Shown here: positions 21,324-38,948 of the stretch, one piece after another
Numbering within the stretch: position 1 is the stretch's first letter
How the letters are laid out: every line of letters starts with the position of its first letter
Made by a program: the position numbers and the translations under genes
Notes under the pieces: generated by a model
The model's database searches: none
What the model saw: only the letters and a program-made list of their open reading frames with translations
What the model was told of the DNA's origin: nothing
Assembly (NCBI GenBank): GCA_032159565.1
Contig: JAVHWR010000038.1
Reading direction: 5' to 3' (one strand)
Source: Mycobacterium sp.
GTDB lineage: Bacteria > Actinomycetota > Actinomycetes > Mycobacteriales > Mycobacteriaceae
DNA: 64,000 nucleotides

Positions 21324-21337
21324 GATTGTCAACAAAA
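21324..21337. promoter_or_regulatory. Putative GntR/FadR operator, copy 1 (upstream of MFS gene)
   Basis: GATTGTCAACAAAA; the core TTGTYRACAA recurs at 24203, 27158 and 31671. Confidence 0.65.
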
Positions 21338-21438
21338 CTACGACCTGACCCCGAGGCCGTGCACAACCTGCCCGTCGTGAGTGTGGGAGCCGGCCCGGGG
21401 AAGTGTCCGACAGTGTCATTGACACGAGGAGGCTCCCG

Positions 21439-22827
21439 ATGGGCAGCCCTGATCAACCTCCACACTCGACCGTCAGCACCGAAGACGTACCGCCCGATGT
21501 GCTGAAGAAGGCCGTCGCGGCCTCGGCCATCGGCAACGCGACGGAATGGTTCGACTACGGGATCTACGCATACGGCGTCACCTACATATCGGCGGCGATT
21601 TTCCCCGGGGACACCGAGAGCGCCACGTTGTTGGCGTTGATGACGTTCGCGGTGTCGTTCCTCGTCAGGCCTATCGGCGGGCTGGTATGGGGTCCGCTCG
21701 GCGACCGGATCGGGCGTCGGTCGGTGCTGGCCATCACGATCCTGATGATGTCCGGCGCCACGCTGTGCGTTGGTCTCATCCCGTCCTACGCGATGATCGG
21801 GTTCTGGGCGCCGGTGCTGATGGTGCTGCTGCGCATGATCCAGGGCTTCTCGACCGGCGGCGAGTACGGCGGTGCCGCCACCTTCATGGCGGAATACGCT
21901 CCGCCCCGCAGGCGCGGATTCTTCGGCAGCTTCCTGGAGTTCGGCACGCTGGCGGGGTTCTCGCTCGGTGCACTGCTGATGCTCGGTTTCTCGTTGGTGC
22001 TCAACGACGATCAGATGAGCACCTGGGGGTGGCGGCTGCCCTTCCTCGTTGCAGCCCCTCTCGGCCTGGTCGGTGTCTACCTGCGGTCGCGGCTGGAGGA
22101 CACACCGATCTTCCGCGAACTGGCAGAGTCCGGTGAAACGGAGGAGCGCACCGCCACCCAGTTCAAGGATCTGCTCAGCCGTTACTGGGGGCCGATCCTG
22201 CGGTTGGGCGGCGTTGTCGTCGCACTCAACGTGGTGAACTACACCCTGCTGAGCTATATGCCGACCTACCTCGAGCAGTCGATAGGCCTGTCCGCCACCA
22301 TGTCATTGTTGGTGCCGATCATCGGCATGCTCGCGATGATGGTGTTCCTGCCGATCGCAGGCGGCCTATCGGATCGCGTTGGGCGCAAACCGATGTGGTG
22401 GTTCTCGTTGATCGGCCTCTTCATCGCAGGCATCCCAATGTTCATGTTGATGGGCACCAACGTGGTGGGCGCGGTGATCGGTTTCGCGGTCCTCGGCCTG
22501 CTGTACGTGCCGCAACTAGCCACGATTTCGGCCATGTTCCCGGCCATGTTCCCCACCCATGTGCGCTACGCCGGATTCGCCATCGCGTACAACGTGTCGA
22601 CGTCGATCTTCGGCGGCACCGCGCCTGCGGTGAACGAATGGCTCGTCAACAAGACCGGCGACAATCTGGTGCCCGCCTATTACATGATGGCCGCGTGCGT
22701 CATCGGTGCGATCGCCCTGATCAAGGTGCCCGAGACGACACGCTGCCCGATGAACGGAACGGAGATGCCTGGCACCCCGGAGGCGCCGCCGCAGCTGGAA
22801 TACGAGAAGCAGCCCGGCGCCGTCTGA
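21439..22827 (+). CDS. MFS transporter, MHS/ProP-like
   Basis: IGNATEWFDYGIY, VRPIGG...GPLGDRIGRR, QGFSTGGEYGG and WGWRLPF; GAGGAGG SD. Confidence 0.92.
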   Translation: MGSPDQPPHSTVSTEDVPPDVLKKAVAASAIGNATEWFDYGIYAYGVTYISAAIFPGDTESATLLALMTFAVSFLVRPIGGLVWGPLGDRIGRRSVLAITILMMSGATLCVGLIPSYAMIGFWAPVLMVLLRMIQGFSTGGEYGGAATFMAEYAPPRRRGFFGSFLEFGTLAGFSLGALLMLGFSLVLNDDQMSTWGWRLPFLVAAPLGLVGVYLRSRLEDTPIFRELAESGETEERTATQFKDLLSRYWGPILRLGGVVVALNVVNYTLLSYMPTYLEQSIGLSATMSLLVPIIGMLAMMVFLPIAGGLSDRVGRKPMWWFSLIGLFIAGIPMFMLMGTNVVGAVIGFAVLGLLYVPQLATISAMFPAMFPTHVRYAGFAIAYNVSTSIFGGTAPAVNEWLVNKTGDNLVPAYYMMAACVIGAIALIKVPETTRCPMNGTEMPGTPEAPPQLEYEKQPGAV

Positions 22828-22908: not shown

Positions 22909-24174
22909 TCACCCCGGGACGACGGCGCCGACGGCGTCGGCCCAGATGCTCGCGGCTTCGTCGACCTGATCACCGGTCACCACCAGTGCCGGGATGAAGC
23001 GCACGACCTGGCCCCACGCGCCACAGGTCAGCAACAGCAGGCCGCGGCGAGCCGCCTCCTGCTGGGCGGCGGCGGCGGTGACCGGATCGGGCTTTCCGTC
23101 GGCGTCACGGAACTCGTTGCCGATCATCAGCCCGAGGCCGCGTACGTCGGCGATCTGGTCGTGCTTGTCGGCCACCATTTGCAGCGCCTCCTTCAGCTGC
23201 GCCCCACGCTGCGCTGAGTTGTCGACGAGCCCTTCATCGCGGATTACGTCGAGGGTCGCCAGCGCGGCAGCACAGGCAACCGCGTTGGCGCCGTACGTGC
23301 CGCCCTGGGATCCCGGCCATGCCTTGGCCATCAGCTCAGACGACGCGGCGATTGCCGACAGCGGGAATCCGGAGGCAAGGCCCTTGGCGGTGATGAGGAC
23401 GTCGGGTTCGGCGTTGAAATGCTCACCGCCCCAGAACTTTCCGGTTCGTCCGAAGCCGGTCTGCACCTCGTCGACCACCAGCAGGATGCCGTGCTGGTCG
23501 GCGCGTTCCCGCAGTCCGGCGAAGAACCGGTCGTTGGCGGGCACATAGCCGCCCTCGCCGAGTACCGGCTCGACGAGGAACGCGGCGGTGTCGGCGGGCG
23601 ATGTCAGCGTCTGCAGGATGTAGTCGAGCTGGCCGAGCGCGAAATCGGTGGCCTGCTCGACCGGCCAGCCGAAGTGGGTGGGATCGGGGAACGGTGCGAC
23701 GTGGACGCCTGCCATCAACGGAGAGAAGCCGGAACGGAACTTCGTTCCGGACGTGGTCAGTGAAGCGGCCGCCACCGTGCGACCGTGGAAGCCGCCGTGG
23801 AAGACGATGACATTCGGCCGTCCGGTCGCCTGCCGGCTCAATCGCAGCGCCGCTTCGACGGCCTCACTGCCCGAGTTCGCGAAGAAGATGCGGTCCAAGC
23901 CCTGCGGCAGCACTTCGCCCAGCCGGTCAACGAGCGCCAGCAGCGGGCGGTGCATGACGGTGGTGTACTGGCCGTGGATGAGCGTGCCGACCTGGCGTTG
24001 TGCGGCCTCGACCACTCGAGGGTGACAGTGCCCGGTACTGGTCACGCCGATGCCCGCGGTGAAGTCGAGGTATCTGCGGTCGTCTTCGTCGTACAGCAGC
24101 ACACCCTCTCCGCGGGCAGCGATGACGCCGGTCGCTTGTTTGAGGACCTGTGAGAGCTGTGCGGACGCGGCCAC
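22909..24174 (-). CDS. Class III PLP aminotransferase (GabT/DoeD-like, diaminobutyrate or 4-aminobutyrate type)
   Basis: DFTAGIG, GFHGRT, VDEVQTGFGRTG, ITAKGL and GGTYG; GTG 24174 with a purine-rich SD. Confidence 0.92.
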   Translation of the reverse strand: MAASAQLSQVLKQATGVIAARGEGVLLYDEDDRRYLDFTAGIGVTSTGHCHPRVVEAAQRQVGTLIHGQYTTVMHRPLLALVDRLGEVLPQGLDRIFFANSGSEAVEAALRLSRQATGRPNVIVFHGGFHGRTVAAASLTTSGTKFRSGFSPLMAGVHVAPFPDPTHFGWPVEQATDFALGQLDYILQTLTSPADTAAFLVEPVLGEGGYVPANDRFFAGLRERADQHGILLVVDEVQTGFGRTGKFWGGEHFNAEPDVLITAKGLASGFPLSAIAASSELMAKAWPGSQGGTYGANAVACAAALATLDVIRDEGLVDNSAQRGAQLKEALQMVADKHDQIADVRGLGLMIGNEFRDADGKPDPVTAAAAQQEAARRGLLLLTCGAWGQVVRFIPALVVTGDQVDEAASIWADAVGAVVPG

Positions 24175-24202
24175 GCTTCTTTCCCTTGCCTGTTGATTGG
24201 TA

Positions 24203-24216
24203 GATTGTCGACAATC
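24203..24216. promoter_or_regulatory. Putative GntR/FadR operator, copy 2 (divergent promoter)
   Basis: Perfect palindrome GATTGTCGACAATC overlapping TANNNT -10 candidates on both strands. Confidence 0.8.
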
Positions 24217-24255
24217 AGCGTATCGGACGGACCGGCGTACGGCGAAGGGGTAGCG

Positions 24256-25722
24256 GTGAGCGAGCACGACGAGGCGAGGGTCGTCCAGACCGTCGAGAAG
24301 CGACTGTTCATCGACGGCAAGTGGCTCGACGCATCCGAGGGACGGACCTTCGACGTCGTCGATCCCGCCACCGGAAGGACCCTCTGTTCGGTCGCCGAGG
24401 CGTCCCCGGCAGACGGCAGGGCCGCACTCGACGCGGCCGTCGCCGCCCAGCCGGACTTCGCGGCGGTTTCACCACGCGAGCGCGCAAACATACTGACCCG
24501 CTCTTACGAGCTGCTGCACGAGCGGATCGACAACCTTGCGCTGTTGATGACGTTGGAGATGGGCAAACCGGTCGCCGAAGCACGAGGGGAGATCGCCTAT
24601 GCCGCAGAATTCTTCCGCCACTTCGCCGAAGAGGCCGTGCGCATCGACGGCGGTTACCAGACGGCGCCTGCAGGCGGAGCGCGCTTCCTGATCGCGCGCC
24701 AACCCGTCGGCCCGTGCCTGCTGATCACGCCGTGGAATTTCCCGATGGCGATGGGCACCCGCAAGCTGGGCCCGGCCATCGCCGCCGGGTGCACCAGTGT
24801 GATCAAGCCCGCTCCTCAGACACCGCTGTCGATGCTGGCGCTGATGGACATCCTGGCCGAGGCCGGGCTGCCCGCGGGCGTCGTCAACTGCATCACCGTC
24901 ACGGAAGCCGGCCCGGTCATGGAGCCGCTGATCCGGTCGGGCCTGGCCCGGAAACTCTCCTTCACCGGCTCCACCCAGGTCGGTCGGCTGCTGTTGGAAC
25001 AGTGCGCCGAGAAGGTCCTGCGGACCTCGATGGAACTCGGCGGGAACGCGCCGTTCATCGTGTTCGACGACGCCGACCTCGACGAGGCCGTCGAGGGTGC
25101 GATCGCGGCCAAGATGCGCAACATGGGGGAGGCGTGCACCGCGGCCAACAGGATGTATGTGCAATCCTCGGTCATCGATGAATTCGGACGCCGGCTGGCC
25201 GCGCGGATGGCTTCGTTGTCGGTGGGCCGTGGCACCAACGATGGTGTCGCCGTCGGTCCCCTCATCGATAAGGCCGCGCTCAACAAGGTCGAGACGCTCG
25301 TCGCCGATGCCGTCGGGCGCGGCGCGACCGTCCTCACCGGGGGATCGGCGCCCGGTGGCGATGGCTTCTTCTATCCGCCCACCGTGCTCACCGGTGTGCC
25401 ACGCGACGCCGAGATGTGCGATCAGGAGATCTTCGGTCCGGTGGCGCCGCTGACGGCCTTCGAGACGGAGGCCGAGGCGGTCGCGGCCGCCAACGACACC
25501 GAATACGGCCTTGTCTCCTACGTTTTCACCAACGACCTGAGGCGTGCATTGCGGGTTGCGGAAGCCCTGGAGAGCGGCATGGTCGGGCTCAACCAGGGCG
25601 TGGTGTCAAATCCGGCAGCGCCGTTCGGCGGCATCAAGCAGTCGGGTCTGGGCCGCGAAGGTGGCTTGGTCGGAATCGACGAGTTCCTCGAGACCAAATA
25701 CATCGGCATAGCGATGCGGTGA
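24256..25722 (+). CDS. NAD(P)-dependent semialdehyde dehydrogenase (GabD/DoeC-like)
   Basis: ITPWNFP, FTGSTQVG, MELGGNAP, catalytic GEAC, EIFGP and PFGGIKQSGLGREG. Confidence 0.93.
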   Translation: MSEHDEARVVQTVEKRLFIDGKWLDASEGRTFDVVDPATGRTLCSVAEASPADGRAALDAAVAAQPDFAAVSPRERANILTRSYELLHERIDNLALLMTLEMGKPVAEARGEIAYAAEFFRHFAEEAVRIDGGYQTAPAGGARFLIARQPVGPCLLITPWNFPMAMGTRKLGPAIAAGCTSVIKPAPQTPLSMLALMDILAEAGLPAGVVNCITVTEAGPVMEPLIRSGLARKLSFTGSTQVGRLLLEQCAEKVLRTSMELGGNAPFIVFDDADLDEAVEGAIAAKMRNMGEACTAANRMYVQSSVIDEFGRRLAARMASLSVGRGTNDGVAVGPLIDKAALNKVETLVADAVGRGATVLTGGSAPGGDGFFYPPTVLTGVPRDAEMCDQEIFGPVAPLTAFETEAEAVAAANDTEYGLVSYVFTNDLRRALRVAEALESGMVGLNQGVVSNPAAPFGGIKQSGLGREGGLVGIDEFLETKYIGIAMR

Positions 25723-25727
25723 CGCCC

Positions 25728-26405
25728 CTAGATGCCGACGTGTTCGGCTCCGTCGACTGTCTTTTCGAGCGTGAGCCGATTGACGGCATCGTCCATGTGG
25801 GCGGCCAGCAACCGGTCGACGAGTTCGCGGTCGCCTTTGCGGATCGCGTTCGCCAGCGCCCGGTGCTCCTTGTCGCGAACCTCGGATCTGGCGTAGGTCT
25901 CGTCGAGGGCATGGATGCACATCCGGGTTTCGGTGATGAAGGTCTGGTGCATCCGGGAGAGCCGCGGGCTCTTGGCGAGCTTCAACAGCCGCTCATGGAA
26001 GGCGATATCCAGCTCGCTGACATCGGCGGGAGTCTCTGCTTCGGCCATCTGGTCGACGATCCCCAGCAGCTCCTTGCCCGCCGTCCGGTGGTCACCGTCG
26101 AGGATTCTGCGGGCGGCCGCTCGTTCGATCGCTTCGCGCGCGCTGTACATGTCGCGGACGTCGTCGGGGGTCATGTCGATCACGAACAACCCGCGGTTGC
26201 GGATCGACACCAGGAGTCCCTCCTGGGTGAGGCGCTGCATGCCCTCCCGCAATGGGCCGCGGCTGACTCCGAGCTTGCGCGCCAACTCGGCTTCGCCCAA
26301 CTGTGCGCCGGGCTTCAGCTCGCCGTGAGCGATCGCCTGGCGCAGCTTCTCGGCGATGATGCTGGGCGTCGACTCCTGAACGAGCGGCCCGATGAAGCTG
26401 CTCAT
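25728..26405 (-). CDS. GntR-family regulator (FadR subfamily, FCD domain)
   Basis: GELKPGAQLGEAELARKLGVSRGPLRE HTH; ELDIAFHE and EHRAL FCD motifs; ATGA overlap with the upstream racemase gene. Confidence 0.93.
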   Translation of the reverse strand: MSSFIGPLVQESTPSIIAEKLRQAIAHGELKPGAQLGEAELARKLGVSRGPLREGMQRLTQEGLLVSIRNRGLFVIDMTPDDVRDMYSAREAIERAAARRILDGDHRTAGKELLGIVDQMAEAETPADVSELDIAFHERLLKLAKSPRLSRMHQTFITETRMCIHALDETYARSEVRDKEHRALANAIRKGDRELVDRLLAAHMDDAVNRLTLEKTVDGAEHVGI

Positions 26406-27121
26406 CGGCGCGCCTCGAACACCGCGCCCAGCCCGGGAAGCACCGGTGGGGAGCCGAGCAGTTCGAGTCCTTTCCACACGGTGACTTGGTTCGCCGTGAG
26501 CACGGGCTTGCCGACGGCCGCTTCCAGCTTGTCGACGATCGCCAGCGTGTGCATCGCGGTGTCCGGGACGAGCACTGCCTCGGCCCTCGGATGATCGGCG
26601 GCAGCCACCATCGCGAGCACCTGCTCGGGGCGAAGAGTGCCCACCTCGGCTGCGGTGTAAATGCCGTGGCTACCCATCGAGACAACCTCGGCGCCCCCTG
26701 CGGTCAGGAAGGCGACGAAGTGCTGCGCTACGTCGTCGGGGTAGGACGCCGCCACCGCGACCCGGCTGATGCCGAGATGCCGCAGCGCGTCGACGAAGGC
26801 GATCGAGGTCGACGACGCGGGGACCCCTGCCGCGGCCTCGACGGCCGACGCCTGCGCCGACGCGCCCTGCGGACCGAACACGAAGCTGCCCGAGGTGCAC
26901 GCCCACATCACGGCGTCCGGCTTCTCGACGGCCAACAGGGCCGCGCCGTCGGCGAGCCGTGCTTGGCTGCCGAGGTCGAGCAGGGCATCGACACGATGTG
27001 CGTCCTCGCCGACCGACGTGATCGCCACCGGCAAACGCACGGCGCCGTCGATGCGCGCCTCGAGGGCGGGAAAGTCGTCCTCGGCACTGTGGCCGGGGTA
27101 GAGCAGGCCAACCGTTGGCAT
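26402..27121 (-). CDS. Asp/Glu racemase / maleate isomerase superfamily protein (Cys/Asp variant)
   Basis: WACTSGSF, PASSTS, GKPVLTANQ; the second catalytic site reads PDTAM rather than SCTN. Confidence 0.85.
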   Translation of the reverse strand: MPTVGLLYPGHSAEDDFPALEARIDGAVRLPVAITSVGEDAHRVDALLDLGSQARLADGAALLAVEKPDAVMWACTSGSFVFGPQGASAQASAVEAAAGVPASSTSIAFVDALRHLGISRVAVAASYPDDVAQHFVAFLTAGGAEVVSMGSHGIYTAAEVGTLRPEQVLAMVAAADHPRAEAVLVPDTAMHTLAIVDKLEAAVGKPVLTANQVTVWKGLELLGSPPVLPGLGAVFEARR

Positions 27122-27157: not shown

Positions 27158-27171
27158 GATTGTTGACAATG
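27158..27171. promoter_or_regulatory. Putative GntR/FadR operator, copy 3
   Basis: GATTGTTGACAATG, preceded by GGTA as in copy 2; overlaps a minus-strand TAACAT -10 (27169-27174). Confidence 0.78.
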
Positions 27172-27251: not shown

Positions 27252-28526
27252 TCACGCGGACTTGTCAGGGGCCAACAGTCGTAGCGCCGTCAGCGTGTAG
27301 GTCCTGGCCGCAACGATCAATTCCTCGAGCGCCACTGACTCGTCGGGACGGTGCGCCTGCTCCGCGACCGATCCAGGCCCGAGGACGACCACCGGCACGT
27401 CGAGGTCGCGGGCGACGAACCCGCCGTCACACGCAGCGGTCCAACCGCCGGGCGCCAAGGTGGGCCCTCCCGCATCGGCGACTGCCGCGCCGACGGTGCG
27501 CGCCAGCGGCGACTCCGACGGCGTCTCGAAGGCCGGCATCTCCATCGGCATCGAGACCTCCACGGTCAGGCCGCGGTCGGCCAGACGCAGCGCCTCGATC
27601 CGCGCACGCAGGTCGTCGAGCACAGTCGCGGCCGACTCGCCCGGCAGGATCCGGCGATCGGCGACCACGGCGCATTCGGCAGGCACCACGCTGCCGCTGT
27701 TCCCACCCTTGATCTGGCCGACGCTCCACGTCGCGGGACCCAGCAAGGGGTGGGGACGGTCCGCCAGTTGGGCGTGCATGCGTTCGATCTCGGCCACCAC
27801 GGCGGCCGCGCCGTAGATTGCGTTGGCGCCATCGCCGGGATTGCCTGCGTGACAAGCAGTTCCGTGAACATGCACCCGCAGGTACGAGGCTCCGCGCGCG
27901 CCGACGATGGTCTGCAGGTCGGTGGGCTCGGCGGTGATGCATCCGGCGAACGACGCCTGTACCGAGGACACATAGGCGCGGATACCGGTCCCGTTCTCCT
28001 CTTCATCCACCAGTGCAGCCAGTTCGACGGGACCGCTCAAACCGGCGCCGCGAAGTGCCGCCATCGCCGAAACGCACGCTGCCAAACCACCTTTCATATC
28101 GGCGGCACCACGCCCGTATATGCGGCCGCCCTCGACGGCAGCGCCGAACGGGTCCTTCGTCCAGCCCTCGCCGACGGGAACGACGTCGGTGTGGCCGAGC
28201 AGCAGAAAACCAGGGCCCTCGCCTGGTGGCCCCGCCTGTCCCGCTCCTCGCGTGCGCCCTGCCTGTCCCGCTCCTCGCGTGCGCCCTGCCTGTCCCGCTC
28301 CTCGCGTGCGCAGTGTGACGCGCAGGTTGTTGCGGCCCGGCGTCACCGGCTCCTCATGAACGGCGAGCCCGAGTTCCGCGGCGGCTGCGGCGAGTACGGC
28401 GACCGTGGCCGCCTCCTCCCCGGGCGGGTTCTGCCCGTCGGCCCGCACCAACGACCGGGTCAGCTCGATCAGATGGTGCTCGTCGATCTTGTCCAGCACA
28501 GACCGTTCGGCGGCGGACACGCCCAT
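27252..28526 (-). CDS. M20 family (ArgE/DapE-like) metallo-deacylase
   Basis: GHTDVVP, GRGAADMKGG, VDEEE, AEPT and AHRPDE metal and catalytic motifs; ATG 28526. Confidence 0.92.
   Translation of the reverse strand: MGVSAAERSVLDKIDEHHLIELTRSLVRADGQNPPGEEAATVAVLAAAAAELGLAVHEEPVTPGRNNLRVTLRTRGAGQAGRTRGAGQAGRTRGAGQAGPPGEGPGFLLLGHTDVVPVGEGWTKDPFGAAVEGGRIYGRGAADMKGGLAACVSAMAALRGAGLSGPVELAALVDEEENGTGIRAYVSSVQASFAGCITAEPTDLQTIVGARGASYLRVHVHGTACHAGNPGDGANAIYGAAAVVAEIERMHAQLADRPHPLLGPATWSVGQIKGGNSGSVVPAECAVVADRRILPGESAATVLDDLRARIEALRLADRGLTVEVSMPMEMPAFETPSESPLARTVGAAVADAGGPTLAPGGWTAACDGGFVARDLDVPVVVLGPGSVAEQAHRPDESVALEELIVAARTYTLTALRLLAPDKSA
28234..28310. repeat. In-frame 27-nt tandem repeat (about 2.9 copies) inside the M20 gene
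   Basis: Unit GCCTGTCCCGCTCCTCGCGTGCGCCCT; encodes RTRGAGQAG x3 on the minus strand. Confidence 0.95.
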
Positions 28527-28531
28527 GCCGG

Positions 28532-29731
28532 TCAGCCCTTTGCGAGCAGATCGACGGCGCGGCGCAGCCGGGCGACCCCCTGGTGGATCCGGTCGGGCGG
28601 CGTCGAGGCGAAACACAGCCGCAGCGCATCACCGAACCGGCCGGACGGTGAGAACGCCGAGCCGGGGATGAACGCGACACCTTCGGCAAGGGCAGGCTCG
28701 AAAAGCGCTGCGCTGTCGACATTGTCGAGAGTGACCCAGCAGAAGAAGCCGCCTTGGGGATCAGTCCACCGGGCGCGGTCGCTGAAGTGTTCGCGTAACG
28801 CCGCGTGCATCGCCTCCTTGCGCCGCCGGTATTCGGCGCGCTGGGTCACCAGATGGTGGTCGAGATGTCCGCCGGTGAGAAAGCCCGCGAGCAGGCGTTG
28901 CGCAGGCAGGTTCGTGCACGTGTCCATCGCCTGCTTGGCGTTGATCAGCAGCGGCTGCAGCTCGGGAACGGTGTCGACCCAGCCGACCCGCAGCCCCGGC
29001 GCGACGATCTTCGAGAAGGTGCGGACCGCGAACACCAGCGGGTCGCCACCTCCGAGTTCGCGCAGCGTCGGCAGCGGCTCGCCCGCAAACCGCAACAAAC
29101 CGTAGGGGTCGTCGTCGATCACCATCGACCCCCATTCACGGGCAAGCTCGAGGAGCCGCAGCCGGCGCTCCAACGACAGCGTCACCCCCGAAGGGTTCTG
29201 GAAGGTCGGGATCGTATAGATCGCCTTGGGGGTGCGCCCGGCTTCGCCGACCAGGCGCTCGAGCTCGACGATGTCCATCCCGTCGTCGTCGACCGGGACC
29301 TCCAGCAGTGTCGCCCCGTAGGACAGAGCGGTCGCGCTGCCGTTGGTGTAGGTGGGCGATTCGACGGTGACGAGATCGCCTGGGTCGACGAAGATCTTGC
29401 AGAACAGATCGAGACCCTGCATGCCGCCCGCCGTGATCGTCAGGCGCTCGGCAGTGGTCTCATCGCTGGTTCCGCGCAGCATCTCCAGCAGCGCGGCGTG
29501 CAGCGGCGGATCGCCTTCCGTCGCGGCATAGTCATAGGCGTCGGGGGAACTCAGTTCGACGGCCGCGATGCCGGCCAGGATCTCCGACGGCACGGCCTCG
29601 GCCGCCGGACTGCCCATCGCGAGCCGGACCACGTCGTGCGATTGCTTCTGCAGCAGTGACGTGCTCGAGTCGATGACCGATCCGACCAGCCCGGCGGCGC
29701 GGGCGGCGAACGGAAGTGTGGATGTGGTCAC
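28532..29731 (-). CDS. Class I PLP aminotransferase (2-aminoadipate/MocR-like domain, no HTH)
   Basis: YTIPTFQNPSG, IDDDPY, TFSKIVAPGLRVGW and LRLCFA. Confidence 0.92.
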   Translation of the reverse strand: MTTSTLPFAARAAGLVGSVIDSSTSLLQKQSHDVVRLAMGSPAAEAVPSEILAGIAAVELSSPDAYDYAATEGDPPLHAALLEMLRGTSDETTAERLTITAGGMQGLDLFCKIFVDPGDLVTVESPTYTNGSATALSYGATLLEVPVDDDGMDIVELERLVGEAGRTPKAIYTIPTFQNPSGVTLSLERRLRLLELAREWGSMVIDDDPYGLLRFAGEPLPTLRELGGGDPLVFAVRTFSKIVAPGLRVGWVDTVPELQPLLINAKQAMDTCTNLPAQRLLAGFLTGGHLDHHLVTQRAEYRRRKEAMHAALREHFSDRARWTDPQGGFFCWVTLDNVDSAALFEPALAEGVAFIPGSAFSPSGRFGDALRLCFASTPPDRIHQGVARLRRAVDLLAKG

Positions 29732-29734
29732 GGG

Positions 29735-30907
29735 TTACCTCCAGACCGTGAGTTCCTGTGGCAGACCTGTCAGGCGCTCGGCGCCTGCGTCGGTGACCAC
29801 CACCGGCTCGGACAATTCGTAGCCCCAGTCGTCGTTCCAGATACCGAGAATGACGTGAAACGCCATGCCTGCGACGAGTTCGGTGGTCTCACCTGGGCGC
29901 AGGCTCACGGTTCGCTCACCCCAATCGGGCGGATACCCGATGCCGATCGAATAGCCGATCCGGGACTCCTTCTGCAGCCCATGGGGTTTGATCACCCGGT
30001 CGAACGCCCGATGCACGGCGCTGCCGTCCGCGCCGGGCCGGATGGCCGTCAGCGTGGCTTCCATGGCATCGGCGACCACCTTCGCGGTGTCGGTGAGCCG
30101 GGACGGCGGTTCACCGAGCATCACTGTTCGCGCCAGCGGCGCGTGGTAGCGGCCGAACACTCCGGCCAGCTCGATCGTGGTGGCTTCGCCGAGTTGAAAG
30201 GTGTGTTCGGACCAGGTCAGATGAGGGGTGCCTGCGGCCTTTCCGGTCGGCAGCATCGGAACAACCGCCGGGTAGTCACCGCCGTGCTCGGCTGTGCCGC
30301 AGGCCTGCGCCGCCATGATCTCGGCGACGACATCGCATTGCCGCCTGCCTGGGCGTACCCCCTCGCACGCGGCGCGCATCGCCTTTTCGGCAATCGTGCC
30401 CGCTATACGCAACTGCTGTATCTCGAAGGCGGACTTGACGACTCGTACCCAGTTGACCAACTCGCCTGCGTCGACCAGCCGGTTTGAGTGCAGTCCGTGC
30501 TCCAACGCCTGATACCCGCGTGGAGAGAAGAAGTGCGAGTCGGCTTCGACGCCGACTGCTTCGCCCGCGGGTACGAGCCCGCGTACCTCTTCGGCGATCC
30601 AGTCGAACGGATGCACATCCCGCCGGTGCACCAACTCTTCGGGGTATCCGTGGATGTGGTCATCGTGGAGGTTGGCGGTGAAGCCCGCGCCTGCGGCGTC
30701 CATCGCCCTGGTGAACAGATGCGGCGGGCCGTCGGCGCCGACCAGCAAGCACTGCGGCGTGTAGAACGACCATGCGTTGTAGCCGGTGAGATAGAACAGA
30801 TTCGCCGGATCGCACACGATCAGAGCGGCAAAGTCCTTCTGCGCCATGGCTTCCCGCACACACCCCAACCGGTCGGTGTACTCCACGTTGATCGCACCGT
30901 CCGGCAT
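29735..30907 (-). CDS. Ectoine hydrolase EutD/DoeA-like (M24 pita-bread fold)
   Basis: LTGYNAWSFY, VNWVRVVKS, GGDYPAVVPMLPTG, PHLTW, IELAG, RYHAPLART and GYPPDWGERTVSLRP closely match recalled EutD/DoeA motifs. Alternative start GTG 30913. Confidence 0.85.
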   Translation of the reverse strand: MPDGAINVEYTDRLGCVREAMAQKDFAALIVCDPANLFYLTGYNAWSFYTPQCLLVGADGPPHLFTRAMDAAGAGFTANLHDDHIHGYPEELVHRRDVHPFDWIAEEVRGLVPAGEAVGVEADSHFFSPRGYQALEHGLHSNRLVDAGELVNWVRVVKSAFEIQQLRIAGTIAEKAMRAACEGVRPGRRQCDVVAEIMAAQACGTAEHGGDYPAVVPMLPTGKAAGTPHLTWSEHTFQLGEATTIELAGVFGRYHAPLARTVMLGEPPSRLTDTAKVVADAMEATLTAIRPGADGSAVHRAFDRVIKPHGLQKESRIGYSIGIGYPPDWGERTVSLRPGETTELVAGMAFHVILGIWNDDWGYELSEPVVVTDAGAERLTGLPQELTVWR

Positions 30908-30909
30908 CT

Positions 30910-31632
30910 TCACCGCTCCAGCAGCTGCTGGCCGGGGCCGACCGCCTTGCGCCCGAGGACGCGTAGCGCCGACCACACGGTCACCTGGTTGGCGGTCAGC
31001 ACCGGTTTGCCCAGCTCGCGTTCCAGCGTCGCGATGACGTCATAGGTCGGCAGATTGGTGCAGCTGATGAAGACGGCCTGCGCATCGGCGTTGTCGGTGT
31101 CGCGCACGAGCCCGGCGGTGACGTCGTAGGGCACCGTCCAGATGTCGGAGGTCAATCCCAGTCCTGCGGCGGCGACCACCTCGATCCCGGCTTCGGCCAG
31201 GTAGGCGGTCAGGCCCACGGTCAGCTCGGCGATGTAGGGCGTGACGGTGGCGATGTGGGCGATGTCGAGGTGGTGCAGCGCCTCCAGCAGCGCGCCGCTG
31301 GTTGTCACGGCTGCGGGCGCACCGGCCTCCGTCATGGCGGCCACCAATGCGGCCTGACCCTCGAGGCCGCCGATGAAGCTGCCCGATGTGCACGCATACG
31401 CCATCACCAGCGGCGAGACCGCGCGAACGTCGTCGAACCCCTTGGCGACCAGGGCCGGGTCGGAGATGTGCACAGCCATTTCGAGCGTCGCAGGCATCGG
31501 CGCATACGCCATGCGGGTGATGTGCAGGCTGACGTCGTCGGGCATCCATCGCCAGAGCTCCCTGTCGAGCGCGAAGTCGAACGGTGTGACGACTCCTATC
31601 CCGGCTTGCTCGACCGACGGGGAATGGCCCAT
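30910..31632 (-). CDS. Asp/Glu racemase / maleate isomerase superfamily protein (Cys/Cys, EutA-like)
   Basis: YACTSGSF and ISCTNL both retain Cys; GKPVLTANQ. Confidence 0.88.
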   Translation of the reverse strand: MGHSPSVEQAGIGVVTPFDFALDRELWRWMPDDVSLHITRMAYAPMPATLEMAVHISDPALVAKGFDDVRAVSPLVMAYACTSGSFIGGLEGQAALVAAMTEAGAPAAVTTSGALLEALHHLDIAHIATVTPYIAELTVGLTAYLAEAGIEVVAAAGLGLTSDIWTVPYDVTAGLVRDTDNADAQAVFISCTNLPTYDVIATLERELGKPVLTANQVTVWSALRVLGRKAVGPGQQLLER

Positions 31633-31670: not shown

Positions 31671-31684
31671 GATTGTTGACAATC
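31671..31684. promoter_or_regulatory. Putative GntR/FadR operator, copy 4 (divergent promoter)
   Basis: GATTGTTGACAATC contains TTGACA (31676-81), with TAGCCT at 31700-05 on the plus strand and TACGAT on the minus strand. Confidence 0.8.
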
Positions 31685-31712: not shown

Positions 31713-32750
31713 GTGCCTCGAACACGACCGGTTGTCGCGGTCCTGTGCGAGAAGGCGACCGACCGTCCACCCGGTCTCGACGGCCTCGAGGTGGAGTTCC
31801 GCTACTGCGCGGCCGACGGCTTGGCAGACGCTGTCCACGGGGCGCAGGCACTCTTGCTCTGGGACTTCTTCTCGAAGGCCGTGAGCGACGTCTGGGCCGA
31901 GGCCGACCAGCTCGAGTGGATCCACATCACCGCCGCGGGCGTTGACACCCTTCTGTTCGATGAGCTACGGAACTCCGACGTCGTGGTGACCAACGCGCGC
32001 GGAATATTCGACCGGCCGCTGGCCGAATACGTGCTCGGCGCCGTGATCGCCAACGCCAAGGACAGCTTGACGAGCTTCGACCTGCAGCGCCGCCATGAGT
32101 GGCGGCACCGCGAAACCCGCAGCATCACCGGCGCCACTGCTCTGGTGGTGGGTACTGGCGGCATCGGGCGCGAAATCGCGAAGCTGCTGCGGGCGGCAGG
32201 CATGGTCGTTCGGGGCGCAGGCCGCCGTGCCGTCGCAGACGACCCCGACTTCGGCGAGATCGTCGACAGCGCCGACCTGGCGGCGGAAGCGGGCTGGTGC
32301 GATCACCTGATCCTGGCCGCGCCGCTGACCGCAGCGACGCGTGGCCTCGTCGACGCGCGCGTTCTATCTGCCATGAAGCCCGACGCGCATCTGGTCAACA
32401 TCGCCAGGGGGCCGATGGTCGACGAGGTCGCTTTGCTGGACGCGCTGACACAGGGAAGCATCGGCGGGGCGACCCTCGACGTGTTCGACACCGAACCGCT
32501 GCCTGCCGGTCACCCGTTGTGGGACGCGCCGAATGTGACGGTCACCGCGCACATGTCGGCCGACGCCGTCGGCTGGCGCGAGACCCTCGCCAGCCAGTTC
32601 GCGACGAACGTCCGGCACTGGCTGGCCGGCGAGCCGATGATCAATGTGGTGGACAAGAAGCTCGGGTACGTGTCCGGAGCCGGAGGGCCGGCGACATCAA
32701 GACCCGGAGCCGGAGGGCCGGCGACATCAGGACCCGGAGCCGCGCGATGA
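31713..32750 (+). CDS. D-2-hydroxyacid dehydrogenase family protein
   Basis: TAAGVD, TNARG, VVGTGGIG, VNIARG, DVFDTEP and TAHMS (Arg/Glu/His triad). Confidence 0.93.
   Translation: MPRTRPVVAVLCEKATDRPPGLDGLEVEFRYCAADGLADAVHGAQALLLWDFFSKAVSDVWAEADQLEWIHITAAGVDTLLFDELRNSDVVVTNARGIFDRPLAEYVLGAVIANAKDSLTSFDLQRRHEWRHRETRSITGATALVVGTGGIGREIAKLLRAAGMVVRGAGRRAVADDPDFGEIVDSADLAAEAGWCDHLILAAPLTAATRGLVDARVLSAMKPDAHLVNIARGPMVDEVALLDALTQGSIGGATLDVFDTEPLPAGHPLWDAPNVTVTAHMSADAVGWRETLASQFATNVRHWLAGEPMINVVDKKLGYVSGAGGPATSRPGAGGPATSGPGAAR
32674..32742. repeat. In-frame 30-nt tandem repeat at the dehydrogenase C-terminus
   Basis: CCGGAGCCGGAGGGCCGGCGACATCARGAC x2 plus a partial copy; encodes GAGGPATSRP/GAGGPATSGP. 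Confidence 0.92.
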
Positions 32751-34153
32751 TCGCGTCGGCGACGGAACTGGTCGAGGGCTACCGGAAAAAGACGATCTCG
32801 CCCGTCGAGGCGGCGGAGGCCGCGCTGAAGGCCATCGACACCTACGACGGCCGGGTGAACGCCTTCGTCCTGGTCGATCGCGACGGCGCACTGGCCGCCG
32901 CGAAGGATTCGGAGGAGCGTTGGCAGTCCGGGGAGCCGCTTGGACCCGGCGACGGTGTGCCGACCTCGATCAAGGACGCGTTGTGGACGCGCGGATGGCC
33001 GACGCTGCGCGGCAGCGAACTGATCGATGCGGCGGGACCGTGGGACGAGGATGCGCCGTGTGTGGCGCGGCTGCGCGAGACGGGCGCCGTCATCCTCGGC
33101 AAGACCACGACGCCGGAGTACTCGTGGAAGGGAGTCACCGACTCCCGACGACACGGCGTAACGGGTAACCCGTGGGATCCGGCGATGACGTCAGGTGGAT
33201 CCAGCGGAGGCAGCGCTACGGCGGTGGGGCTTGGCATGGGCCCGTGGTCGGTCGGTACGGACGGCGGCGGGTCGGTTCGCATCCCTGCGGGGTTCACCGG
33301 AACGGTCGCGCTGAAGCCGACATACGGCCTGATTCCGTTTTATCCGCCGAGCCCGTTCGGCACGCTGTCGCACGCCGGGCCGATGACCCGGACCGTGCGG
33401 GACGCCGCCGCTCTGATGGACGTGATCACCGGATTCGACGCGCGCGACTGGGCGGCCATGCCGACGCCGGTGACATCGTTCCTGTCTGGACTCGACGACG
33501 GGGTGGCCGGACTGCGCGTCGGTTACTCATCCGATCTCGGCTTCGTCCGAAACGATCCTGAGGTCGATGTCGCCGTCCGCGCAGCCGTCGACGTCCTGGC
33601 GAGCGCCGGGGCCGAGGTGGAGGAGGTCGACCCGGGGTTCAGCGACCCGGTGGATGCCTTCCACGTCCTGTGGTTCGCCGGCGAGGCCAAGGTGTTGTCG
33701 TCCTACGGGGCCATCGACGACCTCGCCGACCGGATCGATACCGGACTGCACCGCACCGCGCTGATCGGATTGCGCTACTCGGCGTCGGACTATTTGGACG
33801 CCATGGCGGTCCGGATGTCGCTGGGCGGGCTGATGGGGCGGTTCCACCAGCGCTACGACGTGCTCGTGACGCCGACGCTGCCGCTGCCCGCGTTCCCCGT
33901 CGGCATAGATGTGCCGGGTGGGTCGGTGTCGCCGGACTGGACGAGTTGGACGCCGTACACCTACCCCTTCAACCTGACACAGCAGCCCGCGCTCAGCGTG
34001 CCGTGCGGGTTCACCGGCGCCGGATTGCCGATCGGATTGCAGATCGTCGGCGCCCGGCACACCGACGCACTGGTGTTGCGTGTTGGCCAGGCCTACCAGT
34101 CAGCGACCGACTGGCACCAGCGCACACCGGCACTTCTGGCCGAGGAGGTTTGA
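32747..34153 (+). CDS. Amidase signature family enzyme
   Basis: GVPTSIKD, GKTTTPE, GGSSGGS, GTDGGGSVRIPA; ATGA overlap. Confidence 0.94.
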   Translation: MIASATELVEGYRKKTISPVEAAEAALKAIDTYDGRVNAFVLVDRDGALAAAKDSEERWQSGEPLGPGDGVPTSIKDALWTRGWPTLRGSELIDAAGPWDEDAPCVARLRETGAVILGKTTTPEYSWKGVTDSRRHGVTGNPWDPAMTSGGSSGGSATAVGLGMGPWSVGTDGGGSVRIPAGFTGTVALKPTYGLIPFYPPSPFGTLSHAGPMTRTVRDAAALMDVITGFDARDWAAMPTPVTSFLSGLDDGVAGLRVGYSSDLGFVRNDPEVDVAVRAAVDVLASAGAEVEEVDPGFSDPVDAFHVLWFAGEAKVLSSYGAIDDLADRIDTGLHRTALIGLRYSASDYLDAMAVRMSLGGLMGRFHQRYDVLVTPTLPLPAFPVGIDVPGGSVSPDWTSWTPYTYPFNLTQQPALSVPCGFTGAGLPIGLQIVGARHTDALVLRVGQAYQSATDWHQRTPALLAEEV

Positions 34154-34154
34154 G

Positions 34155-34655
34155 ATGAGCAGGTTGATCACGGTGTCGCTGGACAAGCGCGGAGTGAGTT
34201 GCGTTGCCCGGATGCTCGACGACGAGGCACCCCGGACCAGCGCCGCGGTGTGGGACGCGCTTCCGCTGTCGGCGCCGGTGTTTCACGGCAAGTACGCCAG
34301 AAACGAGATCTACACGCTGCTGCCTGCGTTCGCGGCCGCCGACCCCGGGAAGGAGAACACCACGATCACGCCGATTCCGGGCGACCTGTGCTGGTTCTCG
34401 TTCGACTCCGATGTCCTCGGCAATCCGGCGTACGGCTACGAAAACACCACCGGCACAGGGACAACCGGTGCCATCGTCGACCTTGCGTTGTTTTACGGGC
34501 GGAACAACCTATTGATCAACGGGGACCAGGGCTGGGTGCCTGGCAATGTCTTCGGCGCGGTGGTCGAGGGACTCGACGAGATGGCTGAGGCGTGCCAGGA
34601 CCTGTGGATGGGCGGCGCACGCGGCGAGACACTGAGCTTTCAGCGCCGCGACTGA
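34155..34655 (+). CDS. DUF3830-like (cyclophilin-like fold) protein
   Basis: 166 aa; APRTSAAVWDALP, HGKYARNEIY, ENTTITPIPGDL and LFYGRNN. Family recognised from memory. Confidence 0.78.
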   Translation: MSRLITVSLDKRGVSCVARMLDDEAPRTSAAVWDALPLSAPVFHGKYARNEIYTLLPAFAAADPGKENTTITPIPGDLCWFSFDSDVLGNPAYGYENTTGTGTTGAIVDLALFYGRNNLLINGDQGWVPGNVFGAVVEGLDEMAEACQDLWMGGARGETLSFQRRD

Positions 34656-34815: not shown

Positions 34816-35715
34816 CTAGCGCTTGATCGCGCTCAGGTAGCTCATTTCGGTGAAGAAGCCGATGGCTCCGTCCTCGGGAAACTCGAAACCGTTGTCGGCA
34901 TATGCATCCGCCATCTTTCGCGCCGACACATCCCAGCCGTGACCCTTGAGGTACTCGATGACGTCATTGCGTTTCTCGTGATAGATGAGGTCGCCCATCT
35001 CGAAGTCGTGGCCGTACTGCTTCAGCCGATCCGAGATCAGCTGCGACCGCTCGTCGGAGAACATGCTGACATCGGGGATGTGCTCGGTGGCCAGCCGACT
35101 GCCCGGCGCACTGAGCTCGTCGATCCTGTCGAACAACAGGTCCTGGGCCTCCGACGGAAGATAGATGAGCAGGCCCTCGGCAATCCATGCGGTGGGCTGC
35201 GACGGGTCGAAGCCGTTGTCCCGCAATGCTTTCGGCCAGTCGTCGCGAAGGTCGATCGCGACGGTGCGTCGGTCGGCCGTTGGCTGCGCGCCGAGGTCGG
35301 CGAGCGTCGTGGACTTGAAGTCGATCACCTCCGGTTGATCGACCTCGAACACTGTCGTTTCGTCCGGCCACGGCAATCGATAGGCCCGAGCGTCCAAGCC
35401 CGCCGCCAGAATCACCGCCTGACGTACCCCTGCAGCCGCCGCATCGGTGAACAACCTGTCGAAATGGCGGGTGCGGACCGCCATGCCCTCTGCGGCGCGC
35501 TGAATGTTGAATCGCGGATCGATGTCCTCCAGCGTGATCTCGCCGTCAAGCGCCTTAGTGAAGACGTCCAGGCCGACCGCACGCACTAACGGCTCGGCGT
35601 ACGGATCGTCGATCAACCCCTCGCGATCGGCCAGCACGCGCTGCGCGGCCACCATCGTGGCGGTGGCGCCGACGCTGGACGCGAGATCCCACGAGTCGTT
35701 GTCGGTGCGGGCCAT
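34816..35715 (-). CDS. SAM-dependent methyltransferase, mycobacterial LCM-like family (Rv0726c/Rv0731c type), copy 1
   Basis: [50 protein letters not shown] and EGLLIY. Confidence 0.93.
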   Translation of the reverse strand: MARTDNDSWDLASSVGATATMVAAQRVLADREGLIDDPYAEPLVRAVGLDVFTKALDGEITLEDIDPRFNIQRAAEGMAVRTRHFDRLFTDAAAAGVRQAVILAAGLDARAYRLPWPDETTVFEVDQPEVIDFKSTTLADLGAQPTADRRTVAIDLRDDWPKALRDNGFDPSQPTAWIAEGLLIYLPSEAQDLLFDRIDELSAPGSRLATEHIPDVSMFSDERSQLISDRLKQYGHDFEMGDLIYHEKRNDVIEYLKGHGWDVSARKMADAYADNGFEFPEDGAIGFFTEMSYLSAIKR

Positions 35716-35723
35716 CATGCTCC

Positions 35724-36617
35724 TTACAGGGTTGCCGTGAGGTAGCCGGAGTCGCCGATGAACCTGATGAGCTCGTCGTCCGGCACCTCGAAACCGTTGG
35801 CGGCGAACGCCTCCGCGGTTGAGATAGTAGACACTTGCCAGCGGTGCGAGGACAGGTATTCACGGGCCGTATTGCGGTCGCCTGAGTAGAACAACTCCGA
35901 CAACTTGATGTCCGAGCCGGCCCGACGCGATCGTTCGTCCAGCTTTTCTGTCCAGTCAGCCGGCATGGACGTCATGTCCATGTGTTCGGTGGCCAACCGA
36001 CTGCCAGGGGCGGACAGCGCGGTGACGTTGTCCAGGAGACAATCCTGCGCATCCGGTGGCAGATAGACCAAAAGGCCCTCGGCGATCCACGCGGTGGGCC
36101 GGGTCGGGTCGAAGCCCGCCTCGCGTAATGCGGCCGGCCAATCGTCGCGCAGGTCGATGGCGACCGTCTTGCGGGTGGCTCTCGGAAGCGCACCGAGGCC
36201 GTCGAGCGTCGTTGTCTTGAACTCGATGACTTGCGGTTGATCGACTTCGAAGACCACCGTGCCCGCCGGCCATGGAAGCCGGTAGCCGCGGGTGTCCAGT
36301 CCCGCCGCCAGAATCACCGCCTGCCGAATCCCGGCTTCGGAAGCGGCAAGGAAGAAGTCATCGAAAAACCGTGTCCTGACCGCGATCTGCTCACTCATCG
36401 CCTTGCGGTTCATCACCGGGTTGCCGTTGAACGCCTCGCCGTCGACGATCCTGATGAAACTGTCCACGCCGACCGCGCGGACCAGCGGCTCGGCGAACGG
36501 ATCGTCGAGTAGCGGGTCGGGCCCCCGAGAGGCCACCGCTCGAGAGGCCGCCACAGCGGTGGCGGTAGCGCCAACGCTCGAGGCCAGGTCCCAGGTGTCG
36601 TTGTCTGTTCGTGCCAT
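35724..36617 (-). CDS. SAM-dependent methyltransferase, same family, copy 2
   Basis: Same motif set ([21 protein letters not shown]). Confidence 0.93.
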
Positions 36618-36624
36618 CGAATGC

Positions 36625-37644: not shown

Positions 37645-37648
37645 GGTT

Positions 37649-37711
37649 TCATTCCTCGGCTCCCGCTCGCTCCGGTCCTCGCTTCGCCGCGATCCTCACT
37701 CGCACTCCCTT
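37649..37711 (-). repeat. MIRU-like intergenic unit carrying a mini-ORF
   Basis: AAGGGA SD, then GTG...GAA TGA (MRIAAKRGPERAGAEE), ending 4 nt before the next ATG. Confidence 0.55.
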
Positions 37712-38641: not shown

Positions 38642-38948
38642 GAAGAAAACCCCTGTCGTTAGGCTATCCGTCAATTACTTAGCTGATGTAACGAGCTGTC
38701 ACCGACTCTACGCTTTTATCCTGAAAAGTCGTCTGACCTCAGTGCCTGCACCAGCGGATGCGGAGTAGACAACCACCAACTGTTACTCTCGTAGACTGCG
38801 TGACTCCACAGGCTGGGAGCAGGTCAGATGGCCTGGGCCGACAAGCACCCAGGCTGCCCGGGGCACTCGCACACGACTTAACCGACGCTGGTAGAGACCA
38901 GCCCCATTTGGCACGCCGCGATATGAGCCCGGCTGCGCAGGAGGAAGA

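Follow-up and report, generated by a model that had tools for sequence, protein, structure and literature searches.

The gene at positions 27252..28526 (minus strand) of the window, by which we mean the whole 64,000-nucleotide stretch of Mycobacterium sp. DNA that was analyzed, encodes a 424-aa deacylase of the M20A (ArgE/DapE) family. Based on sequence comparisons, this binuclear-metal enzyme is probably, though far from certainly, a functional and dedicated second enzyme in a GntR-controlled actinobacterial pathway for the breakdown of ectoine or a similar solute. Because the gene adjoins that of a DoeA-like M24 hydrolase, where EutE/DoeB is usual, the M20 enzyme likely performs the deacetylation step, and comparative evidence makes it plausible that it does so in the stead of EutE/DoeB.

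The M20 gene is intact and of the ArgE/DapE type

The protein matches both Peptidase_M20 (PF01546, 116.8 bits) and M20_dimer (PF07687, 73.3 bits) far above cut-off. Its top NCBIfam matches are all of the ArgE/DapE type, each below its own cut-off (PRK07522, 208.9 bits; TIGR01910, 206.3 bits; TIGR01892, 183 bits). The TIGR01910 cut-off is 217.6 bits, and orthologues free of the repeat described below score 215.9 to 224.7 bits, so that all of them, the window copy included, lie near the threshold. Scores fall well short of the ArgE equivalog TIGR01892 (cut-off 297.7 bits) and of the DapE equivalogs TIGR01900 and TIGR01246 (102 versus 304 bits and 104 versus 362 bits, respectively).

The best structural-sequence relative is ArgE of Escherichia coli (7RSF, 111 bits), which has identical metal-ligand motifs and the same dimerization domain, although core identity is ~30% and the mycobacterial gene is an accessory one in a catabolic context. 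The natural substrate of ArgE, N-alpha-acetyl-L-ornithine, is longer by one methylene than N-alpha-acetyl-diaminobutyrate (N-alpha-acetyl-DABA), its next lower homologue. A complete ArgE/DapE-type metal site had been claimed for the M20 enzyme in the original prediction, and alignment to 7RSF bears this out. All ligands are present, namely H112 (in GHTD), D143 (AADMKG), E175/E176 (DEEE), E200 (AEPT) and H392 (QAHRPDE), and the metal motifs, together with H226 of the dimerization domain, match ArgE residue for residue. The binuclear metal ligands and the general-base Glu are unchanged across 34 orthologues.

The start codon at 28526 is consistent with the alignment of 392-aa orthologues, and an AF2 model predicts an intact fold (pTM 0.84). 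A detail absent from the original prediction is an in-frame tandem repeat within the gene (28229..28311, minus strand; 27 bp x 3.1, 98% matches by TRF), which encodes RGAGQAGRT three times at residues ~73 to 100. It is seen in the alignment as a 27-aa insertion missing from the orthologues and is modeled as a disordered loop with strands 65-72 and 106-112 on either side.

The M20 gene closes a tight operon within a putative larger regulon

The M20 gene is the final gene of an operon that reads EutA-like, M24, AT1 and M20 on the minus strand. The first gene (30910..31632) belongs to the EutA-like Asp/Glu-racemase (Amdase) superfamily (PF17645) and scores 108.6 bits on TIGR02990, below the cut-off of 318. 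It is followed by the DoeA/EutD-like M24 hydrolase (29735..30907; TIGR02993, 6twj), a protein of 390 aa whose ATG at 30907 begins 2 nt past the EutA-like stop; the longest M24 reading frame extends to 30976. AT1 (28532..29731; PF00155) is a class I aminotransferase from the "multiple-substrate" group of KAT, AadAT and LysN and stands alone, without an HTH domain, with PDB matches to 1x0m, 3aov and 1wst at 260 to 266 bits and to LysN at 196 bits. The M24 stop and the AT1 start are separated by 3 nt, and the AT1 stop and the M20 start by 5 nt. These spacings of 2 to 5 nt agree with the earlier placement of M20 in one operon with the EutD-like gene, and M20 is predicted from them to be translationally coupled within it.

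On the 3' side of the M20 gene lie a second EutA-like (Amdase) gene, assigned by profile matches (26402..27121, minus strand), and a GntR/FadR-type regulator with GntR and FCD domains (25728..26477, minus strand), which is probably the repressor of the regulon. Beyond these are an SSADH-like aldehyde dehydrogenase (ALDH; 24193..25722, plus strand; PF00171), which scores 573 bits on GabD against a cut-off of 828, and a class III aminotransferase (AT3; 22909..24267, minus strand) whose profile scores place it with GABA and acetylornithine aminotransferases (PRK08117, 454 bits; acetylornithine aminotransferase PRK05769, 424 bits; GABA aminotransferase, 376 bits; DABA aminotransferase, 266 bits). 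A ProP-like MFS osmolyte/H+ symporter (21403..22827, plus strand) scores 428 bits on ProP, below the cut-off of 544. The divergent plus-strand genes on the other side of the operon encode a D-2-hydroxyacid dehydrogenase (HADH; 31713..32750), an amidase-signature amidase of the PRK06169 type (32801..34153, start approximate) and a DUF3830 protein (34080..34655), on which a literature search found no papers.

A palindromic sequence, ATTGTYRACAAT, occupies the promoter gaps of the cluster, with seven matches, a number reached in 0 of 100 shuffles. One copy, GATTGTTGACAATC (31671..31684), lies in the gap with the divergent promoters, from which the M20 operon is driven, and another (27158..27171) in the 130-nt gap 3' of M20 and 5' of the second EutA-like gene and the regulator. 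A third, GATTGTCGACAATC (24203..24216), sits between the divergent AT3 and ALDH genes, and the true ALDH start is probably downstream of it; a further copy, at 21324, belongs to the symporter gene. The sequence is retained at 26 actinobacterial loci, and as the predicted GntR operator ATTGTYRACAAT links all parts of the cluster across Actinomycetota.

M20 is conserved beside M24, and EutE and DoeB2 are absent

The original prediction noted no aspartoacylase-family gene in the cluster. That finding extends to the whole genome (6.24 Mb, 99.99% complete), in which profile searches for EutE/DoeB (TIGR02994) and PF04952 returned nothing. No protein of the genome exceeds the cut-off (550 bits) for DoeB2 (NF038260), and the M20 protein of the window gives no match to that model at E <= 0.001.

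The same pattern is seen in relatives. Among 151 genomes sampled from the family, M20 is present in all 24 that carry M24, and EutE in none of them. Seven other genomes of the same genus in this sample yielded neither M24 nor M20; one of the seven, G055, has only an M20 paralogue that is 40% identical. M20 orthologues occur without M24 in three genomes (G008, G114 and G030). To survey loci more widely, an 8-sequence M24 alignment served as the query, the 36-sequence alignment having no stretch conserved enough. At the 37 loci thus compared within the actinobacterial M24 clade, M24 has its most constant partner in M20 (31/37); ALDH is present at 19/37, AT3 at 15/37 and the amidase at 11/37, with M20, ALDH and AT3 constituting a DoeA-type context. 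EutE, the M20D amidohydrolase and EutC are found at none, and EutB is likewise absent. The trees of M20 and M24 mirror each other, indicating co-divergence. The slot that M20 holds beside M24 is filled by a true EutE (577 to 605 bits) in Proteobacteria and by an M20D amidohydrolase in Bacillota, Desulfobacterota and some Alphaproteobacteria. The pairing of M24 with M20 is common to many other actinobacteria besides this soil mycobacterium. Four Brevibacterium genomes with M24 contain neither an M20 orthologue nor EutE; there, M24 adjoins an omega-aminotransferase and unknown ORFs. These neighbors are not ectABC, and a link of M24 to ectoine synthesis was rejected.

The original proposal that M20 replaces EutE is thus sustained in part, as regards linkage, co-divergence, genomic slot and the lack of EutE and DoeB2, whereas the substrates of M24 and M20, and the order of the steps, are points that we infer.

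The M24 partner resembles ectoine hydrolase

Among characterized proteins, DoeA is by far the closest relative of M24: the crystallized enzyme of Halomonas elongata (6twj) matches at 335 bits and ~50% identity, and the runner-up in the PDB at 76 bits. All residues invariant over 36 diverse DoeA-like representatives are kept. On these similarities, M24 would open the ectoine ring. On the DoeA equivalog TIGR02993, however, M24 scores 404.5 bits against a cut-off of 613; EutE-linked M24 enzymes reach 772 to 785 bits and every other clade 385 to 520. The actinobacterial DoeA-like proteins are monophyletic (SH-aLRT 100). When eight DoeA_2 sequences were added, the tree had a basal polytomy with long branches, and we therefore make no claim from bracketing by validated ectoine hydrolases. 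A literature search for actinobacterial growth on ectoine gave nothing relevant. EctC was not matched in the mycobacterial genome, which says little since the 14 control genomes were matchless too.

It is possible, though decidedly less probable than not, that the cluster serves another imported solute, for example a lactam, an N-acylated amino acid or a cyclic amidine other than ectoine, or that it acts mainly on 5-hydroxyectoine, with M20 deacylating the N-acyl amino acid released by M24. The sub-threshold score and separate clade of M24 favor this, as does the absence of EutB and EutC. An ectoine route also leaves AT1, HADH, the amidase, DUF3830 and the two EutA-like genes unexplained; under the alternative, AT1 and HADH would reflect a different carbon skeleton. 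Furthermore, G030 carries an FAD/FeS 2-hydroxyacid oxidase in the place of M24 and keeps AT1, M20, HADH and the operator. Against another solute stand the closeness of M24 to DoeA, its complete set of invariant residues, and the presence of a ProP-type transporter with SSADH-like and class III aminotransferase genes, as in doeCD/ssd-atf. We also know of no alternative natural substrate for this M24 subfamily.

A putative pathway and the place of deacetylation

In the favored pathway, in which M20 is the deacetylase of ectoine breakdown, the ProP-like symporter would take up the solute and M24 would open its tetrahydropyrimidine ring to give N-alpha-acetyl-L-2,4-diaminobutyrate. M20 would then cleave off the acetyl group, releasing diaminobutyrate and acetate, and AT3, the SSADH-like ALDH, AT1 and HADH would convert the remaining C4 skeleton into aspartate, oxaloacetate or malate. 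AT1 and HADH have no role in the canonical ectoine route. The original prediction had further suggested that M20 and the amidase might each act on one isomer of the acetylated product. This may be doubted: the amidase is present at so few of the loci, and the hydrolase product is reported to be mainly or solely the alpha isomer (PMC8739950, PMC7192451).

Removal of the acetyl group could come later, since AT3 is of the GABA/acetylornithine type, which would suit a substrate whose alpha-amine is blocked or missing. AT3 would convert N-alpha-acetyl-DABA, still acetylated, to N-acetyl-aspartate semialdehyde, ALDH would oxidize it to N-acetyl-aspartate, and M20 would act last in the manner of an aspartoacylase, much as in the acetylated and succinylated routes for arginine and ornithine. 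The lower score of AT3 on the DABA aminotransferase model points this way, as do the gene order in Mycobacteriales (AT3, ALDH, M24, AT1, M20) and the Brevibacterium loci, in which M24 lies beside an omega-aminotransferase and the deacylase is missing. Nevertheless, we regard this order of steps as improbable. M24 is linked more often to M20 than to ALDH or AT3, and Citricoccus and Agrococcus have minimal M24-M20-MFS modules alone amid housekeeping genes, with AT3 and ALDH missing within 10 kb. In addition, the deacetylase works directly on the hydrolase product in both known systems.

There is a slight chance that the real deacetylase is another protein, with M20A in an accessory or unrelated, peptidase-like role. 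The amidase gene is part of the divergent operon, which shares the operator, but it accompanies M24 far less often than M20 does. The other candidate, an M20D protein on contig 19, is the top match of the genome to the DoeB2 model at 227 bits, near the 245 bits of a cluster-linked Bacillus enzyme. It is found in 12 of 12 genomes of the genus, including one (G031) that had neither M24 nor M20 in the family scan, and this status as a core gene within the genus led us to reject it as a hidden DoeB2. Finally, although databases name the M20 protein "acetylornithine deacetylase," a housekeeping ArgE or DapE identity was rejected on its sub-threshold equivalog scores, on the true DapE encoded elsewhere (contig 12, 517 bits) and on its patchy distribution, and this reading is hardly credible, as is adjacency by chance given linkage and co-divergence with M24 across families.

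Proposed convergent enzymes for one deacetylation step

The M20 enzyme invites comparison with EutE/DoeB of H. elongata and Ruegeria pomeroyi, which is encoded in the same place, directly 3' of or near the DoeA/EutD-type hydrolase gene. Both are zinc-type hydrolases of N-acyl amino acids with the same proposed reaction, but EutE/DoeB belongs to the AstE/AspA family, which is unrelated to M20A in fold, and no sequence similarity was detected. EutE has been proposed to aid product release from the hydrolase.

A non-orthologous replacement at this step has a precedent in DoeB2 of Methylotuvimicrobium alcaliphilum (NF038260; MEALZ_3976) and "abgB" of Bacillota, M20-superfamily metallo-amidohydrolases that supplant EutE beside a DoeA homologue (PMC7192451, PMC13188858). 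DoeB2, the methanotroph enzyme for the work of EutE/DoeB, was genetically validated in M. alcaliphilum (PMC7192451). Unlike the window protein, which is M20A, these enzymes are M20D (TIGR01891, amidohydrolase/ILR1/AbgB), and their M24 partners fall in other clades. The idea of such a replacement is less novel than the original prediction implied, because an M20-family enzyme in place of EutE is already represented in NCBIfam by DoeB2.

A more far-reaching version of the favored pathway, which we consider speculative and doubtful, is an independent ectoine-type regulon in Actinomycetota, governed by a GntR/FadR repressor at ATTGT-N2-ACAAT, with M20A as a third convergent N-alpha-acetyl-DABA deacetylase and a new downstream route. 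AT1 would turn diaminobutyrate into 4-amino-2-oxobutanoate, HADH would reduce this to 4-amino-2-hydroxybutanoate, the GABA-AT-like enzyme would convert it to malate semialdehyde and the SSADH-like enzyme would yield malate. Such a route would skip aspartate semialdehyde and would explain each core gene of the cluster.

Ectoines are plentiful both as osmolytes and as nutrients, and to our knowledge their breakdown has been proven in only a few Proteobacteria. Published surveys define ectoine clusters by the eutD-eutE pair, so clusters without eutE are missed. The conserved operator offers a handle for identifying the true inducer. If M20A is the deacetylase, one deacetylation step would be served by three enzyme types that are unrelated or distantly related, and the labels "acetylornithine deacetylase" and "M24 peptidase" that annotation pipelines give to these genes could be put right. 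Ectoine consumption would then be widened to many soil and skin actinobacteria, among them Mycobacterium, Kribbella, Nocardioides, Williamsia, Kocuria and Arthrobacter.

The M20 protein and its metal site

The gene at 27252-28526 (minus strand) encodes a 424-residue protein, referred to here as M20, in which the Pfam search recovered Peptidase_M20 and M20_dimer domains. Its top NCBIfam models are ArgE/DapE-type, each scoring below its own cut-off (PRK07522, 208.9 bits versus 412; TIGR01910, 206.3 versus 217.6; TIGR01892, 183 versus 297.7). As the original prediction had claimed, the ArgE/DapE-type metal site is complete: in the alignment to E. coli ArgE (PDB 7RSF, 111 bits) all metal-site motifs are conserved, namely GHTD (H112), AADMKG (D143), DEEE (E175, general base; E176, ligand), AEPT (E200) and QAHRPDE (H392), along with the lid-domain histidine H226. 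The metal-site residues are unchanged across 34 orthologues, and the start codon at 28526 agrees with that of 392-residue orthologues.

Within the gene, a 27-bp unit present in 3.1 tandem copies (28229-28311, 98% matches) adds RGAGQAGRT three times in frame, 12 residues ahead of H112. Because the alignment shows this insertion to be missing from all orthologues, we regard it as a recent VNTR-like expansion, and it is probably the reason that the window copy stays at 206 bits on TIGR01910, compared with 216-225 for orthologues free of the repeat. In an AlphaFold2 model (pTM 0.84) the insertion forms a disordered loop linking strand 65-72 to strand 106-112, at the end of the latter that is away from H112, and the remaining fold is intact. 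Near-perfect in-frame tandem repeats with units of 27-30 bp occur in three coding genes of the window, the other two lying in the tail of the D-2-hydroxyacid dehydrogenase gene (32674-32742) and in the third LCM methyltransferase gene (37252-37370).

Operon context and search for a canonical deacetylase

M20 is the final gene of a tightly packed operon. The DoeA-like M24 hydrolase gene (29735-30907) starts 2 nt past the stop of an EutA-like gene (30910-31632) and is followed by a class I aminotransferase gene (28532-29731), with gaps of 3 nt between M24 and the aminotransferase and 5 nt between the aminotransferase and M20, which upholds the earlier assignment of M20 to the operon of the EutD-like gene. 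The aminotransferase is a member of the KAT/AadAT/LysN group. The surrounding window is a mycobacterial chromosome stretch of about 65% G+C, with the cluster slightly higher than its flanks (0.68-0.69), and the nearest relatives of the cluster are found in Mycolicibacterium agri and M. moriokaense. Four tandem paralogous genes of the leucine carboxyl methyltransferase (LCM) family lie on the minus strand at 34816-38674, between the cluster and secY.

The cluster was said to lack an aspartoacylase-family gene, and this extends to the whole genome (6.24 Mb, 99.99% complete), where neither TIGR02994 (EutE/DoeB) nor PF04952 (AstE/AspA) has a match. The sole match to NF038260 (DoeB2) is an M20D amidohydrolase on contig 19 (227 bits). 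Its counterpart is present in 12/12 sampled same-genus genomes at 79-86% identity, including one (G031) in which the family scan detected neither M24 nor M20; it is thus a core gene of the genus, and we rejected it as the partner of an accessory cluster. A housekeeping DapE is encoded elsewhere, on contig 12 (517 bits).

The window M24 is about 50% identical to the crystallised H. elongata DoeA (335 bits), its second-best PDB match being a prolidase at 76 bits, and it carries all residues invariant in 36 diverse DoeA-like representatives. On TIGR02993, whose cut-off is 613, it reaches 404.5 bits, and on DoeA_2 185 bits. Rooting the M24 tree with DoeA_2 sequences left a polytomy at the base, so that ectoine activity cannot be inferred by bracketing.

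Distribution of deacylase partners

Among 151 genomes of the GTDB family, M24 was found in 24 (50-54% identity), all of which also carry M20 and none of which yielded EutE. In the eight mapped loci of these, the aminotransferase sits between M24 and M20, which are spaced by about 1.2-1.4 kb; in G006 M24 and M20 are on separate contigs. Neither orthologue was found in the remaining seven same-genus genomes, which makes the cluster accessory. Two genomes (G008 and G114) have M20 copies without M24 in unrelated contexts, yet these nest inside the linked clade of the tree. In a third (G030, locus L015), M24 is replaced by a 1029-residue FAD-linked oxidase/4Fe-4S/CCG fusion resembling GlcD/GlcF 2-hydroxyacid oxidases (C33, 4429-7518), while the operator, class I aminotransferase, M20 and 2-hydroxyacid dehydrogenase are retained.

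A wider scan of species-representative genomes added 80 loci, for which the cluster proteins, together with EutE, M20D and EutC sequences drawn from the added loci, served as mapping queries. Three kinds of deacylase accompany DoeA-like M24 enzymes. True EutE (577-605 bits) immediately follows M24 in Pseudomonas, Paracoccaceae, Rhizobiales and Burkholderiaceae, where M24 scores 772-785 bits on TIGR02993. An M20D amidohydrolase, corresponding to the "abgB" of PMC13188858 and kin to NCBIfam DoeB2, is the partner in Bacillaceae, Desulfobacterota and some Alphaproteobacteria, and the ArgE/DapE-type M20A in Actinomycetota. Maximum-likelihood analysis groups the actinobacterial M24 enzymes into a single clade of 37 (SH-aLRT 100), separate from the EutE-linked clade (17 rows, support 100) and the M20D-linked groups. 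Their 37 loci contain M20 (31), class I aminotransferase (29), D-2-hydroxyacid dehydrogenase (24), ProP-like MFS (20), SSADH-like dehydrogenase (19), class III aminotransferase (15), EutA-like (14), DUF3830 (12) and amidase (11) genes; EutE, M20D and EutC are each found in none. Citricoccus and Agrococcus have M24, M20 and MFS alone amid housekeeping genes, a putative minimal unit for import, ring opening and deacylation.

Of the six loci lacking M20, one is a contig end and the other five belong to Brevibacterium (L038, L039, L041, L046 and L056), whose M24 has an omega-aminotransferase (PRK06541, 754 bits) as divergent neighbour. No M20A orthologue or EutE was found in the four Brevibacterium genomes searched (those of L038, L039, L046 and L056), and this arrangement may be a third way to deal with the hydrolase product.

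Groupings in the M20 tree match those of the M24 tree. The window M20 is sister to those of M. agri, a Mycobacterium MAG and Kribbella and is distant from Williamsia-type and M. frederiksbergense-type clusters, suggesting several independent transfers into mycobacteria. The second mycobacterial type (L059, Mycolicibacterium frederiksbergense; M24 51% identical to that of the window) groups with Leucobacter and Agrococcus, apart from the window/M. agri/Kribbella type, which implies independent horizontal acquisitions. Transposase genes flank the M. agri cluster (L016).

Variant M24 proteins were also seen. P0126 (Ferrimicrobium sp., 755 residues; annotated at source as a pyridoxal-phosphate-dependent enzyme), P0201 and P0227 each have about 350 extra residues fused to the C-terminal end of a DoeA-like domain. 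Two or three M24 paralogues share a cluster in the non-actinobacterial loci L086 (Neobacillus), L050, L075, L062 and L070, as noted for Desulfobacterota and Bacillota in a 2026 paper (PMC13188858).

A shared operator

The window contains exactly four copies of GATTGTYRACAAT, at 21324, 24203, 27158 and 31671. All four lie in promoter gaps of the cluster and none of 100 shuffles reached the match count, in agreement with the operator noted earlier. Its palindromic core, ATTGTYRACAAT, recurs in the equivalent promoter gaps at 26 actinobacterial loci, which span seven or more families, and is missing from every locus outside Actinomycetota. Carriers (within L006-L057) include Kribbella, Nocardioides, Williamsia, Kocuria, Arthrobacter, Cryobacterium and Leucobacter. 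The shared operator and a local GntR/FCD regulator gene (25728-26477) argue for a single conserved regulon that includes M20, and ATTGTYRACAAT is the putative operator marking this regulon across the phylum.

Proposed pathway and precedents

N-alpha-acetyl-ornithine, the substrate of ArgE, differs from N-alpha-acetyl-DABA by a single additional methylene, so that deacetylation of the latter would be natural for the family of M20. In what we consider, by a modest margin of confidence, the likeliest working pathway, the ProP-like MFS would take up the solute, M24 would open the ring to give N-alpha-acetyl-DABA, M20 would remove the acetyl group, and the aminotransferases and dehydrogenases would carry out further metabolism. 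By NCBIfam scores, the class III aminotransferase is nearer to acetylornithine and GABA transaminases than to DABA transaminases, and for this reason the acetyl group may instead be retained as far as N-acetyl-aspartate, which would leave M20 to act last. The presence of the class I aminotransferase and D-2-hydroxyacid dehydrogenase, neither of them required by the canonical route, suggests that the downstream branch differs, or that the substrate is hydroxyectoine or some other compound. The suggestion of one enzyme per isomer finds no support, since just 11 of the 37 loci have the amidase and published work reports that the hydrolase yields chiefly or solely the alpha isomer (PMC8739950, PMC7192451).

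Replacement of EutE by an M20-superfamily enzyme already has precedents. The M. alcaliphilum doeB product shares 22% identity with Halomonas DoeB, and a mutant in this gene builds up N-alpha-acetyl-DAB (PMC7192451); NCBIfam holds a separate DoeB2 model (NF038260), whose matches here are M20D amidohydrolases; and the 2026 survey describes eutE-less Gram-positive clusters with an "abgB" amidohydrolase, termed provisional (PMC13188858). The text of that survey does not describe the actinobacterial M24-aminotransferase-M20A architecture or its operator. Judged from gene content and phylogeny, that M20 replaces EutE in this cluster is a well-supported hypothesis.
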